Of a stretch of DNA of 32,000 nucleotides, positions 9,086 through 16,478 are shown piece by piece (positions within the stretch are counted from its first letter, which is position 1; each line of letters starts with the position of its first letter). Source of the stretch: Bacteroides thetaiotaomicron VPI-5482 (GTDB lineage: Bacteria; Bacteroidota; Bacteroidia; Bacteroidales; Bacteroidaceae); the NCBI RefSeq assembly GCF_000011065.1, contig NC_004663.1:2877412-2909411 (forward strand), written 5' to 3'. The notes under the pieces are model-generated. The model made no database searches, was not told where the DNA came from, and saw nothing but the letters and a program-made list of their open reading frames with translations. Both the position numbers and the translations under genes were made by a program.

Positions 9086-9541
9086 TCAGCCATCCTGTTT
9101 CCCACTGTCGGAACCCATACGTACCAATTCCATCATAACATATAACTTGGTTTCCCGGATCGTGATGAAATTCATGTATTTGAAAATTCCGGCATCCCGT
9201 TTCTGAACGGTCGCCCGCAAAGGGGAAGTCTCATCGCCCGACTCCTTGATCACGCTCTTCAACAGCTTCAGCAACTGATTCCCCCTCTCCCTATCGGGAG
9301 TGGCATAATAATTATCAATTTTATAACCACCATCGAGTTTTCTCTCAACAGGCATGAAAGCCACTACCTGGTCTTCATGGTAGAGAACATGCCAGGTAAA
9401 CATCCGGGAGGATTTATAAGGGTAGTTGTTATTCTCCCGCAGACATGCAGGACTAAGTACAAAGTGCCCTACGGCCAGATAAAGTTCGGGAGATTTTCCC
9501 TCAAATATTCGTACCTTCAGTTTCATAGGCATACATTTCAT
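9086..9541 (-). CDS. Hypothetical protein, possibly GNAT-like fold
   Basis: 151-aa ORF packed 14 nt after the RT stop and 6 nt before the next start. The weak resemblance to GNAT motif A (ATPDRERGNQLLKLLKSVIKE) is by eye only. Confidence 0.45.
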   Translation of the reverse strand: MKCMPMKLKVRIFEGKSPELYLAVGHFVLSPACLRENNNYPYKSSRMFTWHVLYHEDQVVAFMPVERKLDGGYKIDNYYATPDRERGNQLLKLLKSVIKESGDETSPLRATVQKRDAGIFKYMNFITIRETKLYVMMELVRMGSDSGKQDG

Positions 9542-9555
9542 ACATATACTGGTGC

Positions 9556-10740
9556 TTATTTACTATTCCTGTCCCCGCTATCTTCACGATGTACGCTATT
9601 ATCCATAATCCGCCCCCCGGTTTCAGGAAAAGTTTCGGGTTCTTTTCCTCTCCCGTACGTATCTTTTATAGGGATCAGAAAACGACTCCTAATACCGGCT
9701 TTTCTATAACCTCCCGTAAAATAGAAATATTCTTTCAAAGGTGAATTACGCAAGAACCTATCCAGCAGAGCGTATGATCTGAAATGCTTCAAATGCCCCT
9801 GGTAGGAGTTTAGCACAGCCAACATCTTTCGCAGTCTTTCCGGAGCGGGTTTTCCTTTGGAACTCTCTTTTTCCAGCCTGTGTACCGCTTCCCGAAAAAA
9901 TCCTGCGGTACGTTTTGACGGATATTTCCTGTACGGTCTCACATACGCTCCCAGAAAAGCCGCACCACGACTGTAATGCTGCAATTCGATTTTATCCGGA
10001 TGCAACTCCAACTCCAATTCTTCCTTCAAGAATTCCCGTATCCATGGAATCAGTTCCTTTAGATAGCGTTTGCTTGGATGGACAATAAAAAAATCATCCA
10101 CATAACGCCCGTAATGTTTACAGCGTAAAACACGCTTCACATATCCATCCAACTCCCCCAAATAGATGTTACTGAACAGCTGGGATGTCAAATCTCCTAT
10201 GGGAAGTCCCACACCTTCCGGAGAATTGAACAAACTTTTCGTGGGTGGAAGTCCTTCCCAATCTTCCGCGCTACCCCGTATCCGGCAATCCCGCTGGGGA
10301 TTTCTGAATATAATCTGTCTTAGCAGGAAATCTATCAGTTCCATATCCGGGCATTCTTTTTGTTTCCGGCTTCTTCTATATCGTTCCAGTCCCTTGCAGA
10401 TAAGATCGTACAGACGATCCTTCCTGATACTCATGAAATACCCCCTTAAGTCCAGTTTTAATATATAGGCACTATAACGATAATTTTGCGTACAACTGCG
10501 TATGTGGTGTTCCAGGCGTGCTATTCCCTGACTTGTCCCCTTTCCTCGGCGACATGAATAACTGTCAAAAATCATTCTGCCCTCAAACATAGGAGAAATA
10601 TAATTATACAACAGATGATGCACTACCCTGTCCCTGAAATCCGAGGCAAAAATTTCTCGCTTCACTGGCCTGTTAACCACGAAACATACCCCAGGTGAAG
10701 GAGTGTAGTTCCTATCCCTTATCTGTTCATACAACTCCAT
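9556..10740 (-). CDS. Diversity-generating retroelement reverse transcriptase
   Basis: 394 aa. The catalytic box is YVDDFFIV. The DGR-diagnostic LPIGDLTSQLFSN replaces the QGxxxSP of retron and group II RTs. The N-terminus has DRVVHHLL...DSYSCRRGKG. A template repeat lies 175 nt upstream. Confidence 0.93.
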   Translation of the reverse strand: MELYEQIRDRNYTPSPGVCFVVNRPVKREIFASDFRDRVVHHLLYNYISPMFEGRMIFDSYSCRRGKGTSQGIARLEHHIRSCTQNYRYSAYILKLDLRGYFMSIRKDRLYDLICKGLERYRRSRKQKECPDMELIDFLLRQIIFRNPQRDCRIRGSAEDWEGLPPTKSLFNSPEGVGLPIGDLTSQLFSNIYLGELDGYVKRVLRCKHYGRYVDDFFIVHPSKRYLKELIPWIREFLKEELELELHPDKIELQHYSRGAAFLGAYVRPYRKYPSKRTAGFFREAVHRLEKESSKGKPAPERLRKMLAVLNSYQGHLKHFRSYALLDRFLRNSPLKEYFYFTGGYRKAGIRSRFLIPIKDTYGRGKEPETFPETGGRIMDNSVHREDSGDRNSK

Positions 10741-10914
10741 AAGATTATGTTCCAGATCAATCTCAAACGCAAGCTGGCTCGCAGTATTTCTCTTTTCTTC
10801 TTCCTCGCCTCGTAATAGGCATGAAAAAGATCCGTAAGCAAATCCTGTCTCTTATAACATTCAGCCATTTCTGTAATTTACATTCAAAGGATTCCCTGCC
10901 TCGTACAAGGATAA

Positions 10915-11104
10915 ATTCTTGGGAAGAACGCACCCCAAACCCGTACGCCCGATTGTTGTTGTTCAACGGGTTCACGTTCGACGAGTTGAAGTTCAGGTTG
11001 CGACCGTTGTTCTGGTTGTTCGGAACCGCCGACCAACAGTAGCCGTAGCTGCCAACGTTGTTCGCCCCGCCATTGGAATAGTTGCGATACCCCGACGCAG
11101 GGAA
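10915..11104 (-). repeat. DGR template repeat (TR)
   Basis: It aligns without gaps to 12325-12514 at a constant offset of 1410. The coding-sense frame is Asn/AAC-rich (..PNNQNNGRNLNFNSSNVNPLNNNNRAYGFG..). 26 of 30 mismatches fall on TR adenines (T on the + strand). Confidence 0.9.
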
Positions 11105-11337
11105 ATATAACCACTTATTGTATATATCGGAGGACCTTTCGGAACCCCGATATAAAACTGTCCATTACTGCCCGCAACATGGCTTCGGATACATCTATCC
11201 GCCATGACCGTTTTTACACGGACAGTGGGTTACTGAATTTATCTGGCACTCTCTCGCAAGTCTTGGCTATACGAAATGCTGGCCTTATCCTGTTTTGTGT
11301 AGGCAAAGGAATCCTTTTTATTTATATCTTTTCTTGT

Positions 11338-11709
11338 TTATATTTTTTCTTGACTCTTTGCGTCCTGTCTCCGTGCATAATCATGCCAAGCCGACAATTG
11401 CTTCGACAGCAACTCCACCTGTTGGGCAAACGCCGCATACTGCTTCACACTGATATGCCGCATATCTTGCAACAGTCTTAAACGGACCTTGACTCCTACA
11501 ACCAGATCTCTTGCCCGTTCAATATACGGAAGTTTTCCAGTCGTAGCATTAGCCCTGTATATCATTACCATAATCTCGGTCAGATCCTTTTTCAACACCT
11601 CCACCAGTGTATATTTCACATCTCGGGGAATCTTTCCCGTCTTCTCATACACACTCCTTAACAAGTCATATGCAGCCTTATACACAGGCAAATTATCATA
11701 AACTGCCAC
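11338..11709 (-). CDS. avd: Avd-like accessory variability determinant (four-helix-bundle / 23S rRNA intervening-sequence protein family)
   Basis: 123 aa and predicted helical. The N-terminus YDNLPVYKAAYDLLRSVYEKTGKIPRDVKYTL is typical of this family. It sits between the target gene and the TR. Confidence 0.8.
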   Translation of the reverse strand: MAVYDNLPVYKAAYDLLRSVYEKTGKIPRDVKYTLVEVLKKDLTEIMVMIYRANATTGKLPYIERARDLVVGVKVRLRLLQDMRHISVKQYAAFAQQVELLSKQLSAWHDYARRQDAKSQEKI

Positions 11710-11726
11710 TTCTCATTCATTGTATA

Positions 11727-12209
11727 TTAGAGCATCTTTTTCAACTCATTTACAAATAACATACAATCCATCGGAGTACTTTCCGCCAGATTGAACATCC
11801 GGATTCGCATGATTAACTCTCCATGCGGAATATTACTCCGTGACAGATTCTGCACACACGCATCTCTCCTCCCTACAACTGAATGCTCCGATGAAAGTTC
11901 CTGTTTCCATTCTTCAAACCTCTGTCCGTCTATAGGTTTTAACGTTCGCAACACAAGACGGTCAGGCATAGTCTCCATATGCTCCAAAGAACCTATATAC
12001 TTTTGTTCATGCTTACATGGAAATCCCACTGAAACTATCTCACCGCCACCGAGTGACTTTAACCTTCTTTTTATAGCCTTCAAAGGCTTGATCTGCGTAC
12101 AGACAGCGTAAGCAGACTTTTCATAAGCTTTCCAGAAAAGCCCCTCACGATAAAGAATGATACTTCCGTTATTACCTGCTTCAGCTTCTATAAAATCCTT
12201 GCTGGTCAT
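11727..12209 (-). CDS. DGR-linked accessory protein with MutS domain-I-like N-terminus (MSL-like)
   Basis: 160 aa. GSIILYREGLFWKAYEKSAYAVC...GGGEIVSVGFPCKHEQKYI resembles the MutS mismatch-binding domain pattern (LFYRMGDFYE...PMAGVP). It lies 17 nt upstream of avd. Confidence 0.5.
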   Translation of the reverse strand: MTSKDFIEAEAGNNGSIILYREGLFWKAYEKSAYAVCTQIKPLKAIKRRLKSLGGGEIVSVGFPCKHEQKYIGSLEHMETMPDRLVLRTLKPIDGQRFEEWKQELSSEHSVVGRRDACVQNLSRSNIPHGELIMRIRMFNLAESTPMDCMLFVNELKKML

Positions 12210-12240
12210 AATTATTTAATTTTAATATCTATAAAAATCG

Positions 12241-12284
12241 ACCGGCTTCGCCGGTACTATCCCTACGGCCTTAAAGCCGTAGGG
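12241..12284 (-). promoter_or_regulatory. Two hairpins immediately 3' of the VR (candidate DGR target-recognition structure and/or terminator)
   Basis: accggc-ttc-gccggt (12241-12255) and a 9-bp stem ccctacggc / gccgtaggg with a 6-nt loop (12261-12284). The second ends 40 nt from the VR/stop codon. Confidence 0.5.
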
Positions 12285-12322
12285 AAAATAATCCAATGAA
12301 ACGGATACGGTCGCTACGCTCC

Positions 12323-14989
12323 CTATTCTTGGGAAGAACGCAACCCAAACCCGCACGCCCGAGAGTAGTAGAGCAACGGGTACACGGACGACGAGGAGAA
12401 GTCCAGGGTGCAACCGTGGTACTGGCTGTACGGAACCGCCGACCAACAGACGCCGTAGAAGCCAACGCTGTTCGCCCCGCCACCGGAACAGTCGCGAGAC
12501 CCCGACGCAGGGAAGAAGTTGGGTTTACTCTTTGAGGGATCAGTGTAGAAATTCCATCCCTTCGAGGAGTCGTCCCACGTTCCGTTGATTTCAGAAGGAT
12601 TATCTGTATTGCCTCCGGTTGTTGTGAATCCAGTGAAAACATTACTGGGAGGAAGTTTGAAGCCCACAGGAGAGGGATCATAGACCGTTTTTACAACAGA
12701 ATTGTCATTGGCGGTATAAACATTGTTATCGGCACTCCATAGATTTGCATATGTACAATCGCCATAATCTGGACTCTGCATCACATCCGGTTTGAGAATA
12801 TAATTCGTGATACAAGGGGCGCCGATAGAAAAGTCCTCCGTTTTAGGACTTCCCGTGTGAGCATTGCCGTCTTTGTCGTACCAGGTTTTATTGATATCGC
12901 GTAATCCATTCGAAGGCAGGAAAGGATCCTTGCGTCCCCATTGATAGTAAGGATGATTACCACCGACAACGATTGATTTAGAGGCCTGTCTGATAGTTAT
13001 TGTCTGACTCTCTCCTCCGGCTGTGAACTTGACCTTGCAACTACGCTCTGCATAATTCGTGGTACTTCCATCGCACCAGCCGAGATTGACAGACATCAAT
13101 TTATACTTCTTACCCTGGAAATTGGTAATTTCAATGGCATTATTGATATCTTCATCGGTAACCCAGATATGCCAGGACCACAGGACATTGTCGCCGGCAT
13201 CCTTGATGGCAATGATGGCATTACCCTGTCGGATGGTATTCTTGTCCACCGTGAAAGATATATTGCCGTTGCCCGTATTGTTGTATTTTATATCGGTAAC
13301 CAAATTCGGTGCGTCCTGCCATACCAGTTCTGCTTTAGCAGGCGTGCAGTCAGCGTTGTTGCGTATATAGGGGTCAGTGATCGCGTTACCAGCATGGTTG
13401 ATGAAATGACTCAGAATAGTGGTTCCGTACGGATCCGTACCGGACGGAGCCGTAGAGGTATATGCGGACGTATTGGTCGTACCACCTTTGATGGCATTTC
13501 CATATACCAGAGGGAAAGAGTAATATCCCGGAGCACCGACAACGTAGCAGTTGGCGGTGTTTTCATCCACTGTGCCACCATTAGTCTGGTTGGCAAGATT
13601 ATATGGGACAGTTTCAGTACCTTTGACCGAAGCATTCTGTAGAGCAGCCGTATGTTGAGGATTAGCCTCTACGCCAGTCTGTGCGATGACAGTTGCATTG
13701 TATGATTGTGGAGTATCTCCACCATTTCCGGATACGGTAAACGCATCCAGCCAGCCGGGTCTGGTATTGCTCCATGATGCCCCGCCATCTTCTGAATATT
13801 GTGCGGTCCATGTGACAGCCTCTTTAACCCCTTTGGTGTTCTGCCGGTAACTGGTCACATTGTATTGCTGCGTACCGCCTTCATAGGTAAAGTCGGCCGG
13901 GGAGGTAACGGCAAGTGTGTAGGTCCAGTTTATGGAACTGCTGGAAATCTTATAAGTGACGGTCTTGCCAACAGGCCAGACCGTGCCTTTGAGATCGGCA
14001 GTCAGCGTGTGGTCCATGCTGGAGTTATCAGTGAATACGACTTCAAGTTGCGCGCCGTCGGGAAGGGTCTGCGGAACCATCATGAAGGTCTGCGCATCGA
14101 CAGTAAGGGGTTCGTCCGGGATTCCCGTAATGGATCTGTCCAATGTCTGCGGGAAAGTGGCGGGAGTACCTACACCGCTCCATGTCTGCGTTCCCATGTT
14201 GTAGGCCCCACTGGAATATACATTTTTCAAACTGACGCTCTTTACGGTACCTCCCTGCATGTCAGCTCCGCACACGAACCTGATGGCGGTCAGGGCATGC
14301 CTGAAGGTGAGCGGCACGGCAGCGTTGGTGTTCCCGTCCAGTTCATCCGTCTTTGCCACGAGAAGGTCTTCCTGCTCATTGACATCGACCGGAACGGTCA
14401 CACTGATGACAGGAGAACCGGCATATGCGCTGCCGGAAAGCACATAATGCCCGTTGTCTTTCGGAGCGTATGCGAAGAACCTCATTTTGTATGAAGCCCC
14501 GGGCCAATAATAGGCGGAGGAAAGGACATAGTCACTGCCGGACTTGCTGGCAGTGGCATTATAGAAGTAGTCGGGGGTTCTGCTTTCGCTCCACGAACCG
14601 GTGTAGGAGTAAGCGGAGACACCGAAACTGTTGTACATATTGTCATTCTTGATGGGAGTGGCACGGGTAAGAGCTGCCGTGTCCGGACGATCGTCCGAAG
14701 AGGGTGAAGCAATGCTGTCTGTGTAAAGCGTGTGCAGGTAAAGAGGAGTGCTGCCTCCCTGCAGGGCGATGACAGTACCTTGCGGAACATCAGCATCGGT
14801 AGTGGAACGGGTTGACGGAGTCCAGGAGGAGCTGATCTCGGAGGTGAAAGATACATGCGGGGAAAGTGAAGGACGATCCATGTCATCCTCACAAGAGAAA
14901 AGGCAAATACTGCCCGAAACAAGCGCCGAAAACAGATGACGCCAAAAGGCGTACCTGCCGGGAAATGATGTAAAACGGGAAAATTTCAT
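12323..14989 (-). CDS. DGR target: large fimbrillin-operon lipoprotein with a C-terminal variable lectin-fold-like domain (candidate pilus tip adhesin)
   Basis: 888 aa. Signal peptide plus lipobox (SICLFSCEDD). The C-terminal region has YYQWGRKDPF and GVCWSA motifs. Its last ~63 codons are the VR. It is the last gene of the fimbrial-type operon. Confidence 0.88.
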   Translation of the reverse strand: MKFSRFTSFPGRYAFWRHLFSALVSGSICLFSCEDDMDRPSLSPHVSFTSEISSSWTPSTRSTTDADVPQGTVIALQGGSTPLYLHTLYTDSIASPSSDDRPDTAALTRATPIKNDNMYNSFGVSAYSYTGSWSESRTPDYFYNATASKSGSDYVLSSAYYWPGASYKMRFFAYAPKDNGHYVLSGSAYAGSPVISVTVPVDVNEQEDLLVAKTDELDGNTNAAVPLTFRHALTAIRFVCGADMQGGTVKSVSLKNVYSSGAYNMGTQTWSGVGTPATFPQTLDRSITGIPDEPLTVDAQTFMMVPQTLPDGAQLEVVFTDNSSMDHTLTADLKGTVWPVGKTVTYKISSSSINWTYTLAVTSPADFTYEGGTQQYNVTSYRQNTKGVKEAVTWTAQYSEDGGASWSNTRPGWLDAFTVSGNGGDTPQSYNATVIAQTGVEANPQHTAALQNASVKGTETVPYNLANQTNGGTVDENTANCYVVGAPGYYSFPLVYGNAIKGGTTNTSAYTSTAPSGTDPYGTTILSHFINHAGNAITDPYIRNNADCTPAKAELVWQDAPNLVTDIKYNNTGNGNISFTVDKNTIRQGNAIIAIKDAGDNVLWSWHIWVTDEDINNAIEITNFQGKKYKLMSVNLGWCDGSTTNYAERSCKVKFTAGGESQTITIRQASKSIVVGGNHPYYQWGRKDPFLPSNGLRDINKTWYDKDGNAHTGSPKTEDFSIGAPCITNYILKPDVMQSPDYGDCTYANLWSADNNVYTANDNSVVKTVYDPSPVGFKLPPSNVFTGFTTTGGNTDNPSEINGTWDDSSKGWNFYTDPSKSKPNFFPASGSRDCSGGGANSVGFYGVCWSAVPYSQYHGCTLDFSSSSVYPLLYYSRACGFGLRSSQE
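12325..12514 (-). repeat. DGR variable repeat (VR), 3' end of the target gene
   Basis: 190 bp homologous to the TR, with mismatches concentrated at TR-adenine positions. It encodes FPASGSRDCSGGGANSVGFYGVCWSAVPYSQYHGCTLDFSSSSVYPLLYYSRACGFGLRSSQE and ends at the stop codon. Confidence 0.9.
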
Positions 14990-15236: not shown

Positions 15237-16385
15237 TTACATCGCGACATCTACTGGCTGGTCGGTCCACTCGTCAACAGTTACAGTAAACTTGATGGGG
15301 TTGCCCAGAACAGGATCACCACCGTTACCACCGGGTACCGGATCCGGATCAATGGTCGGATCGGTGGGATTCGTCGGATCAGTGGGGTTCGGATCAATCT
15401 CACCAGTACCACCGCCGTTGCCGCAGAAGTTCAGCGTGTAGGTATATTTCTTACCAGGTTCCCAGTTGGTGTTGATACCTACGGCAGAGAATGCGTATTT
15501 GCCGTCCTTGGCATCACCTGCTGCCGGTTGCGGGTAAAGCAGTATTTCATTGGCGCCGTCCAGGCTGTATATGCGACAGAGCACGGACAGGTAAGCACCA
15601 GTAGTTGCAGTAGTACCGTCCCATGCCGTTAGCTGCTGTGGAATAAGCATGAAGTTGTCGTCACCGAACATGATGCGTTGGGCATCAGCTGTCAGGATGA
15701 CGGGCGCCCCACCCTTGATCATGTAGGCCTTTGTAGGATCGTCTTTTTCACTCCAGTTAGACCATTGGCTTTGCTGCAGGACATAGCTGGACTTGGTTTC
15801 CGTTTCCGGAAAGGCAAACTCGGCCTTTGCGGCGGCATTCACCAGTTTAACGCCCATGATCTCAATCTTTATCTTGTCATTGGAACATTTGGCCTTGACC
15901 TCGATCTGGGAGAGGGCGTGCTTGAAGTTCATGGCAACACCGGGACCCTCGTTGACAGCCTTAGTTCCCGTATTGTAAGAGATCACAAGATCCTTTTGAT
16001 CTGCAACGGCCTGTGCGGGAGAGAAACCGGTTATCTTCTTTGACGCATTGTCTATACTCACTGTGCCGGCGGGAGCTTGGGGAGCATAGGCGAAGAAGGC
16101 AAGCTCATAACCCGGCCAGTAGTAAGTGGAAGCGGTTGTCCAGTTTACACCGTTATCAGCAGAACTGACACCCAGGTCCGTGAAATAATTCTTGCCATCA
16201 CCGATGGCGGTCACATTGAATGCCGCCAGATTCTGCAGGCTTGTTACATTGGTACGGGTAACGGCCCTGTCCAAAGAAGCACGGAAGGAAATGCCACCGC
16301 CATTGTTCACGTCAACGACATCATCGTTGGAACAAGAGGCCAACGCTGTTACAGCCATAGCTGCGAATAAAAGATTCTTTTTCAT
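15237..16385 (-). CDS. Fimbrillin-family lipoprotein (type V pilus stalk-like subunit)
   Basis: MKKNLLFAAMAVTALASCSNDD lipoprotein signal (ORF-track start 16397; ATG at 16385 preferred). It has a Pro/Thr/Asp linker and the C-terminal motif TVDEWTDQPVDVAM, which is shared with the upstream gene. Confidence 0.75.
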   Translation of the reverse strand: MKKNLLFAAMAVTALASCSNDDVVDVNNGGGISFRASLDRAVTRTNVTSLQNLAAFNVTAIGDGKNYFTDLGVSSADNGVNWTTASTYYWPGYELAFFAYAPQAPAGTVSIDNASKKITGFSPAQAVADQKDLVISYNTGTKAVNEGPGVAMNFKHALSQIEVKAKCSNDKIKIEIMGVKLVNAAAKAEFAFPETETKSSYVLQQSQWSNWSEKDDPTKAYMIKGGAPVILTADAQRIMFGDDNFMLIPQQLTAWDGTTATTGAYLSVLCRIYSLDGANEILLYPQPAAGDAKDGKYAFSAVGINTNWEPGKKYTYTLNFCGNGGGTGEIDPNPTDPTNPTDPTIDPDPVPGGNGGDPVLGNPIKFTVTVDEWTDQPVDVAM

Positions 16386-16478
16386 ACAGTAAAACATTAA
16401 AATTAAAAATATATTAAACAGATAAACTATTCATTCTTTACCTCCGTATCGTGAGGCATGGAGAGCACGGTCCGCAAA

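Follow-up and report, generated by a model that had tools for sequence, protein, structure and literature searches.

Does Bacteroides thetaiotaomicron VPI-5482 hold a working diversity-generating retroelement (DGR), and which RNA would serve its reverse transcriptase? These questions are raised by a 32,000-nt stretch of its genome (NC_004663.1, positions 2,877,412 to 2,909,411 of the forward strand; "the window" below), in which a reverse transcriptase (RT) gene, accessory genes and a pair of repeats follow a pilus operon. Our overall reading, held with considerable confidence, is that this is a DGR borne on an integrative conjugative element (ICE), with a frameshifted rt gene, a frozen variable region, and the structured RNA RT-7 as its proposed scaffold and primer RNA.

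The repeat pair and its adenine footprint

A repeat search of the window found one 190-nt ungapped direct repeat, at 10915-11104 and 12325-12514 (spacing, 1410; 84% identity), and no second long repeat. One copy, the template repeat (TR), is noncoding and lies 46 nt upstream of the RT ATG, and the other, the variable region (VR), forms the 3' end of the target open reading frame (ORF). All genes of the cassette are on the minus strand. Its parts are as follows.

12323 to 14989, minus strand: target gene bthT, 888 aa (AAO77423.1), annotated "fimbrillin family protein," last gene of a type V pilus operon
12325 to 12514, minus strand: VR, the last 63 codons and the first base of the stop codon of the target ORF
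11727 to 12209, minus strand: msl, MutS-like accessory gene, 160 aa
11338 to 11709, minus strand: avd, accessory variability determinant, 123 aa
11100 to 11283, minus strand: RT-7 RNA (Rfam RF03028), a multi-stem structured RNA of 184 nt whose end overlaps the first bases of the TR
10915 to 11104, minus strand: TR, 190 nt with 45 adenines, from the repeat search and a recount
9556 to 10868, minus strand: RT gene, frameshifted, with its ATG at 10868 and 26 correct codons followed by a 2-bp AG duplication

The recount gave 30 mismatches between TR and VR, 26 of which fall where the TR has T on the plus strand, that is, A on the coding minus strand. The TR contains exactly 45 adenines in its 190 positions, and 26 of these (58%) are altered, the plus-strand outcome in the VR being A (11 times), C (8) or G (7). 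The hypergeometric probability that at least 26 of 30 mismatches fall on 45 of 190 positions is 5.7e-16. The four remaining mismatches (TR to VR, minus strand, 0-based) are 55 G>T, 63 T>G, 102 C>T, and 171 G>T. By codon position, the TR adenines are distributed as 18 at the first, 25 at the second, and 2 at the third, placing 43 of the 45 at positions 1 and 2, and the TR frame contains 15 AAC and 2 AAT codons.

A previous sequence-only reading of this stretch had aligned the two copies without gaps at a constant offset of 1410, and the repeat search recovered the same alignment. Its count of 30 mismatches, 26 of them at a plus-strand T replaced by A, C or G, agreed with the recount, as did its estimate of about 45 adenines with more than half altered, its description of a TR frame packed with AAC and AAT codons (both translations that it quoted were correct), and its placement of the VR at the C terminus of the 888-aa ORF. 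The gene order that it gave, target(VR)-msl-avd-TR-RT, is correct. The IGDLTSQ and YVDD motifs that it had noted in the adjacent RT are both present and fit the [I/L]GxxxSQ and YxDD signatures of DGR RTs; the catalytic motifs of the enzyme are intact. The Avd-like gene that it had seen in between matched the expected families, both below their curated cutoffs: NF033474 DivGenRetAVD with an E value of 8e-13 (48.6 bits; cutoff, 80) and Pfam bAvd with an E value of 1e-6 (29.6 bits; cutoff, 40). Family and position would fit a DGR. Mismatches spread evenly over the four TR bases, which it had named as speaking against a DGR, are ruled out by the 26 of 30 at adenines.

Metagenome contigs were scanned with a TR-derived pattern in which every adenine was set to N, and 30 human-gut contigs were found. 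The TR was identical in 16 of the 18 TR-bearing contigs of other assemblies (two of the 16 cover it in part); one of the other two had a single nonadenine difference and the other, L009 (L numbers denote the loci compared), had a corrupted TR. Ten distinct VRs with no more than four nonadenine mismatches each entered the adenine count. Against the TR, 192 of 450 adenine cells were changed, versus 10 of 1450 other cells. Contigs sharing an identical 300 nt upstream of the VR differed from each other at 20 to 27 VR positions. This adenine-only footprint across gut metagenomes shows that the DGR family is active in nature. The adenines at TR index 184 to 188 were constant in the 10 VRs, and the last variable adenine was at index 160. 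The pattern points to a 3' boundary without adenine transfer, a candidate for an element resembling the initiation of mutagenic homing (IMH) sequence.

The locus is therefore confirmed as a DGR, as it had been read. If the repeat were instead an ordinary duplication or a gene conversion tract with no retroelement involved, nothing but the repeat itself would speak for it, and it would have to coexist with adenine-specific mismatches (P = 6e-16), with the same bias in 10 independent VRs against an invariant TR, and with a DGR-clade RT, avd, msl, and RT-7 adjoining the repeat. The adenine-specific mismatches and the population VRs already refute this explanation, and we regard it as practically eliminated.

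The locus is also not new as a DGR. The 888-aa target was identical residue for residue to AAO77423.1 in an exact-sequence look-up. The published Bth VR forward primer, CCTCAAAGAGTAAACCCAACT, matches 12517-12537, and the 3' part of the published reverse primer, GATACGGTCGCTACGCTCC, lies at about 12304-12322, just below the VR. Because the target is this protein and these primers flank the VR, the locus is the one already published and experimentally characterized by Macadangdang et al. (bioRxiv 10.1101/2024.11.15.621889). The target protein, ICE, pilus operon, and msl-avd-TR-rt order of their Bth DGR are the same as in the window. They studied five Bacteroides DGRs, including Bth of VPI-5482, reported horizontal transfer of the ICE, and deep-sequenced the Bth VR in vitro and in mice. 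Mutagenesis by Bth was 100- to 10,000-fold below that of the constitutively active elements of B. ovatus and B. finegoldii, and this low activity was ascribed to transcriptional control. There is no structural difference between their account and ours in the available part of the preprint, which does not contain the words frameshift, pseudogene, truncated or inactive and describes no upstream structured RNA for Bth.

The frameshifted reverse transcriptase and a probably frozen variable region

The RT gene is not the simple ORF 9556-10740, which begins at an internal methionine. The true start is the ATG at 10868, in a different frame, and the gene is frameshifted. After the break, the RT frame is open from an ATG at 10740 (394 aa; M43 of the full-length protein) to the stop at 9556, and the short N-terminal ORF ends at 10719. 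The break lies at the following site.

10789 to 10793, minus strand: AG duplication site, AAGAAGAAAAGAGAAA here versus AAGAAGAAAAGAAA in intact alleles

The Bacteroides hominis locus L001, with 95% identical DNA and an identical TR, has an unbroken 436-aa RT. In the alignment of the two, the sole relevant RT difference is AAGAAGAAAAGAAAT in L001 versus AAGAAGAAAAGAGAAAT here, that is, a 2-bp AG duplication after codon 26. A scan of genome contigs with RT peptides returned B. hominis only. The resulting 16-nt tract was present in 3 of 16 sequences (the window and the gut metagenome contigs L013 and L024), and a 14-nt tract was present in the 13 others. It was also present in all four near-identical VPI-5482-like assemblies (L032 to L035; 99.98 to 100% identity over 14.7 kb). 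This recurrence in other assemblies and contigs indicates that the duplication is a real allele and not a read error. Among nine other complete RT regions, seven had an open frame of 427 to 439 codons and two were broken at other sites. The cassette had been called complete in the sequence-only reading, and this stands insofar as all of the parts it listed are present; the RT frame is broken by the 2-bp duplication, and the RT-7 part was overlooked.

The closest relative of the RT in the PDB was the Bordetella enzyme bRT (E value, 3.3e-34), with group II intron RTs far behind at 1e-10. The 436-aa RT aligns to bRT from its residue 13 (bRT residue 17) onward, across the break. The first 42 RT residues, which are split off by the duplication, are part of the conserved N-terminal extension, and the segment lost is by alignment the homologue of bRT residues 17 to 46. 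In the cryo-electron microscopy (cryo-EM) structure of the bRT-Avd-RNA complex, the N-terminal extension makes extensive contact with Avd, and the conserved Lys29 touches a template phosphate. By alignment, bRT Lys29 corresponds to Lys25 here, one residue before the frameshift. Because the duplication removes the start of this extension, including the Lys29 equivalent, the RT of VPI-5482 is probably defective, and the copy would be defective or at best very weakly active. The ORF list held no in-frame alternative start upstream of Met43, and no canonical -1 slippery heptamer was seen at the frameshift site when the sequence was read by eye. AGA occurs at offsets 0 and +2 within AGAGA, and a +2 shift there would give back exactly the wild-type sequence; a leaky RT could arise in that way or by reversion. 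A 7-nt complementarity between UUCUUCC in the TR 3' region (10926-10932, minus strand) and GGAAGAA in the purine tract of the frameshift (10787-10802, minus strand) was considered and dropped, as about 0.5 such matches are expected by chance.

The VR of VPI-5482 showed no sign of recent homing. An identical VR protein was found on 657 contigs, with one further variant carrying 2 point changes in the strain's own lineage. The sequence-only reading had suggested testing whether polymorphism is confined to the TR-adenine columns. For the family this is borne out by the 192 of 450 against 10 of 1450 cells given above, and the own lineage offered only the identical protein and the one variant. It had further stated that an invariant VR together with disrupted RT catalytic motifs would count against its interpretation; with the VR identical on these contigs and the RT frameshifted, the locus is not far from that case, although the catalytic motifs themselves are intact. 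VRs free of nonadenine changes were found at none of 3 frameshifted loci and at 6 of 10 loci with the intact 14-nt tract, a difference that is not significant (hypergeometric P of ~0.12).

Several observations weigh against the reading of a crippled RT and a frozen VR. The RT catalytic motifs are intact, and a 394-aa product from M43 could be made. The frameshifted allele occurs with three different VRs (the window, L013, and L024), indicating that homing went on after the lesion, that the allele recombined, or that it arose repeatedly. Loci with an intact RT, such as L001, also hold decayed VRs (a 3-nt insertion in that case), and nonadenine mismatches therefore do not discriminate between intact and broken cassettes. 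The frozen VR was largely sampled from one laboratory strain, which probably accounts for much of the own-lineage VR sampling. Finally, Macadangdang et al. reported the activity of Bth as low, not zero, and Bfr and Bun as equally low.

From these points a different explanation can be built, in which the cassette is fully functional and silenced by transcriptional regulation, with the 394-aa RT being active or the frame being restored by +2 re-pairing of tRNA-Arg on AGAGA or by reversion. The low avd, TR, and rt transcript levels that accompany the low activity of Bfr, Bth, and Bun in the preprint would fit it, as would the intact motifs, the three VRs linked to the frameshifted allele, and the exact restoration that the sequence of AGAGA would allow. 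It has to contend with the nature of the lost segment, whose homologue in the cryo-EM structure forms the Avd interface and carries the template-contacting Lys29, and with the rarity of +2 frameshifting, for which no stimulatory signal was found, no search aimed at one having been made. Moreover, the 14-nt tract is unchanged in 13 of the other 15 sequences, and the long RT frame is kept in seven of the nine other complete regions. We consider this explanation unlikely, at roughly the level of a serious minority view. Diversification of the VR in trans, by an intact RT of a second DGR elsewhere in the VPI-5482 genome, is very improbable. About one-quarter of Bacteroides isolates have more than one DGR according to the preprint, which would make such a donor conceivable, but Bordetella DGR RNAs are used in cis with their cognate RT-Avd, no second DGR is present in the window, and the VR is identical on hundreds of contigs. 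We retain a probably defective RT and a VR that would be the frozen product of earlier homing.

Further observations concern variation in TR and VR. A second VR class (L001, L002, L024, L025, and partly L020) has a common 3-nt insertion and the same nonadenine differences, and the TR beside these VRs, where it is contained in the locus, equals the window TR except for one adenine change in L024. The differences of this class were confined to the 5' half in L020 and to the 3' half in L002, which suggests partial-length replacement or recombination between VRs. In the gut contig L009 (11245-11434), the TR has 10 adenine substitutions and 2 others and the RT has indels; it looks as if this TR was once overwritten by mutagenized cDNA or VR sequence. 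L012 (7990-8400) holds a decayed relic that lacks avd and RT; its truncated msl leads directly into degenerate copies of RT-7 and TR, which are 75% identical to the window.

RT-7 RNA and the 3' end of the template repeat

The gap between avd and the TR is occupied by the RT-7 RNA, which matched its Rfam model over positions 1 to 191 of 191 with 132.4 bits (gathering score, 116.8) and an E value of 2.6e-31. Weinberg et al. (2017; PMC5737381) had defined RT-1 to RT-19 only by their proximity to RT genes; RT-10 alone was tied to a DGR, as the Bordetella spacer, and a DGR link was speculated for the others. Our literature search for a link between RT-7 or RF03028 and DGRs found nothing past this 2017 speculation. 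In comparison with RT-7 as described there, the RNA here adjoins the 5' side of the TR in 12 DGRs and is linked by complementarity to the 3' end of the TR.

These 12 loci comprise ten obtained through Msl homologues (35 to 60% identical), one from a scan of viral contigs, and the window; L044, which is without avd, TR, and RT, was set aside. The order target-msl-avd-RT-7-TR-RT was found in 11 of the 12 (the window, the viral contig, and nine of the Msl-derived loci), the twelfth being L038, described below; in all 12, the end of RT-7 and the start of the TR are at most a few nucleotides apart. TR/VR mismatches at adenines and at other bases in the divergent loci were 23/0, 21/0, 16/0, 19/0, 21/1, 15/1, 17/2, and 14/4. 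Two segments bear on the link between RNA and TR.

11235 to 11243, minus strand: GAUAAAUUC (GUAAAUUC in the family consensus), the RT-7 junction strand, which the Rfam model leaves single-stranded and which directly adjoins the outer helix
10910 to 10918, minus strand: GAAUUUAUC, a perfect complement of 11235-11243 that extends across the exact 3' end of the TR/VR homology

In the Rfam model, an 11-nt strand, uuuGUAAAUUC, is unpaired between the first hairpin and the outer helix. The best complement of its 8-mer GUAAAUUC within 450 nt downstream was at the same place in all 12 loci and, where measured, begins 3 to 4 nt before the end of the TR/VR homology. Four loci have GAAUUUAC in the TR, which gives a perfect 8-bp duplex with the RT-7 strand; five have GAAUUUGC or GGAUUUAC, giving a G.U-compatible duplex; and two have GCAUUUAC, where a single U x C pair is mismatched. 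At paired positions in the window, RT-7 has changed from G to A and the TR from C to U, and the duplex reaches 9 bp (11235-11243 with 10910-10918); by its sequence, this G-C to A-U double change is compensatory. Over the 12 loci, 97.9% of the cells were paired, against 18 to 51% when the partner was slid. The segment at 10910-10918 is thus a candidate for the template strand of a primer:template duplex.

The pairing came to light only when the TR flank was set against the Rfam consensus. When RNAduplex was used without bias to look for partners of the TR 3' end, the energies did not leave the range of the shuffled controls; the search returned GC-rich spurious duplexes and missed the AU-rich 9-mer. 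Two points tell against the proposed role of RT-7: the covariation is a single event, with a weak shuffle control (46 of 500), and the U x C mismatch in two loci adjoins the presumed priming end. Separately, L038 (4970-5957) has four tandem TR-like copies after RT-7 and no recognizable RT in the 7.6 kb read, and its VR differs from the first TR-like copy at all four bases.

The 5' strand of the RT-7 outer helix directly adjoins the 8-mer, and its partner strand stops 2 to 6 nt short of the TR. The TR would therefore be an ~185-nt loop closed by two stacked duplexes. A similar bracket is known from the DGR of Bordetella phage BPP-1 (mtd-avd-TR-Sp-brt; 8ub7 and related structures). In the Bordetella ribonucleoprotein, the primer:template duplex is formed by Sp 47-56 and TR 118-129, and immediately beside it Sp 59-70 is paired with avd sequence adjoining the 5' side of the TR, forming the cPRT stop. 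The BPP-1 DGR and the DGR in the window also have in common an RT of the same clade (E value, 3e-34), Avd, adenine-specific transfer from TR to VR, and a VR at the C terminus of a ligand-binding protein, in addition to two adjacent RNA duplexes that bracket the TR. The BPP-1 DGR differs in being phage borne, in having a tail fiber target, and in having no msl. The 140-nt structured RNA of BPP-1 (Sp; Rfam RT-10) is placed between TR and brt, on the 3' side of the TR, whereas RT-7 (184 nt) is on the 5' side here, where the TR is only 46 nt away from the RT start codon. For each TR, the RNA survey in the Bordetella cryo-EM paper took in 40 nt on the upstream side and 100 nt on the downstream side, and the putative Avd-binding stem-loops were all downstream.

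The DGR is also similar to the Architecture D (MSL-containing) DGRs of Wu et al. (2018; PMC5758913), including the Legionella DGR, in having avd and msl with the genes on one strand. No RNA element was described for those 16 DGRs, and the present one lies on a Bacteroidales ICE behind pilus genes.

The pairing of the RT-7 strand with the TR 3' end is read directly from the sequences, and a role in priming is suggested by analogy with Bordetella. RT-7 may thus be a cis-acting scaffold and primer RNA of msl-type DGRs. Its GUAAAUUC strand would pair with the TR 3' end, and the adjoining outer helix, on which this duplex would stack, would close the TR 5' end as the counterpart of the cPRT stop duplex. 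Priming of cDNA synthesis would then occur in cis, from a site upstream of the template, with a priming boundary at CCAA/GAAUUUAC (the slash marking the boundary). An RNA spanning RT-7 and TR would be reverse transcribed by the RT with Avd, adenines would be copied unfaithfully, and the cDNA would replace the VR at the C terminus of the type V pilus tip adhesin. These steps follow the Bordetella and Bacteroides literature; what our data show is the adenine-only footprint. The fuller proposal, in which RT-7 serves the msl-type Bacteroidales DGRs as their DGR RNA and is circularly permuted relative to the Bordetella spacer, and in which the rt of VPI-5482 is in addition crippled, is tentative, and we put its chances somewhat below even.

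The target protein, its operon, and the integrative element

BthT has a lipobox-like LFSC at residues 30 to 33, as read from the sequence. Pfam gave a weak BACON match alone and no pilin match on BthT itself. An AF2 model of its last 249 aa had a pLDDT of 85, and Foldseek searches of PDB and BFVD with this C-terminal model returned nothing significant and did not recover a C-type lectin (C-Lec) fold, the best match being a phage "Fibrobacter succinogenes major paralogous domain" protein (E value, 0.088). Macadangdang et al. describe BthT as a pilus tip adhesin with a variant C-Lec fold. Its gene is the last of a Mfa-like operon, with three pilus genes upstream (15237 to 18745), identified by Pfam:

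15237 to 16397, minus strand: Mfa-like fimbrillin gene
16479 to 17420, minus strand: DUF5119 gene
17417 to 18745, minus strand: DUF3575 gene

The same pilus gene arrangement is described for Bfr, Bth, and Bun in the preprint, where the name Msl is also already applied to Bth. Downstream of the target gene, the following feature was found.

12241 to 12284, minus strand: two hairpins 3' of the VR, CCCTACGGC..GCCGTAGGG at 12261-12284 and ACCGGC-GAA-GCCGGT with a T-run at 12241-12255

The fold z-score of these hairpins was -4.6 and one is a terminator-like match. They are candidates for a terminator and/or for a cruciform like that beside other DGR VRs.

Msl matched Pfam MutS_I below the cutoff (E value, 0.039; residues 6 to 75). 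Its AF2 model (pLDDT, 83.8) had top Foldseek PDB matches that were all MutS, with probabilities of 0.96 to 0.99 yet E values of 0.04 to 0.1, and a profile search of PDB sequences with Msl gave no match. Msl therefore appears, weakly, to be MutS-domain-I-like by sequence and model. All ten of its 64 homologues with inspected loci occupy an equivalent position. F25-W26-K27 are invariant among Msl homologues (invariant columns of our alignment A1, which is no MutS alignment). If this motif is set, by eye, opposite F-x-E, the mismatch recognition motif of MutS, the Phe is kept and the Glu is replaced by Lys. PDB sequence searches with the target C terminus, Msl, Avd, and profiles A1 and A2 gave nothing useful.

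In the remainder of the window, Pfam identified ParA, a relaxase, a coupling protein, RteC, and AraC regulators, as well as a ParB-like protein together with a PAPS-reductase/DUF3440 protein, topoisomerase III, DUF1896, and a 1908-aa methylase-helicase. The relaxase, coupling protein, RteC/AraC, integrase, and topoisomerase identify the DGR as cargo of a CTnDOT-like ICE. No tRNA was found in the window; the ICE ends and the tRNA-Lys attachment site lie beyond it. The tyrosine integrase gene adjoining the pilus operon (20041-21243, minus strand) has a premature stop at 20245, splitting it into 332 and 64 aa, and the related assembly L034 has G instead of A at that stop, leaving a 400-aa gene intact. 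By position, this integrase is probably int1 of Macadangdang et al., reported there as dispensable for excision in B. fragilis. Directly downstream of the RT lies a 151-aa ORF (9086-9541, minus strand) with no family match; each of the four VPI-5482-like assemblies has it called, at 146 or 151 aa, and the related ICE loci that extend this far conserve the region as well.

The analysis makes two additions to a known DGR, both of moderate specialist interest: a lesion in the rt gene of the model strain and RT-7 as the probable upstream, permuted DGR RNA. For VPI-5482 as a DGR model, the rt gene differs from the intact allele found in sister elements by a 2-bp duplication in the Avd-binding N-terminal extension. 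If this reading is true, the "tightly regulated" DGR of VPI-5482 would at least in part reflect a genetic lesion, reversible by repairing two bases. From the arrangement of RT-7, a large group of gut DGRs would seem to retain the two-duplex TR bracket, built from an RNA on the other side of the TR, and the RT-7:TR pairing would offer a concrete, mutable 8-bp target for work on priming outside the Bordetella system.

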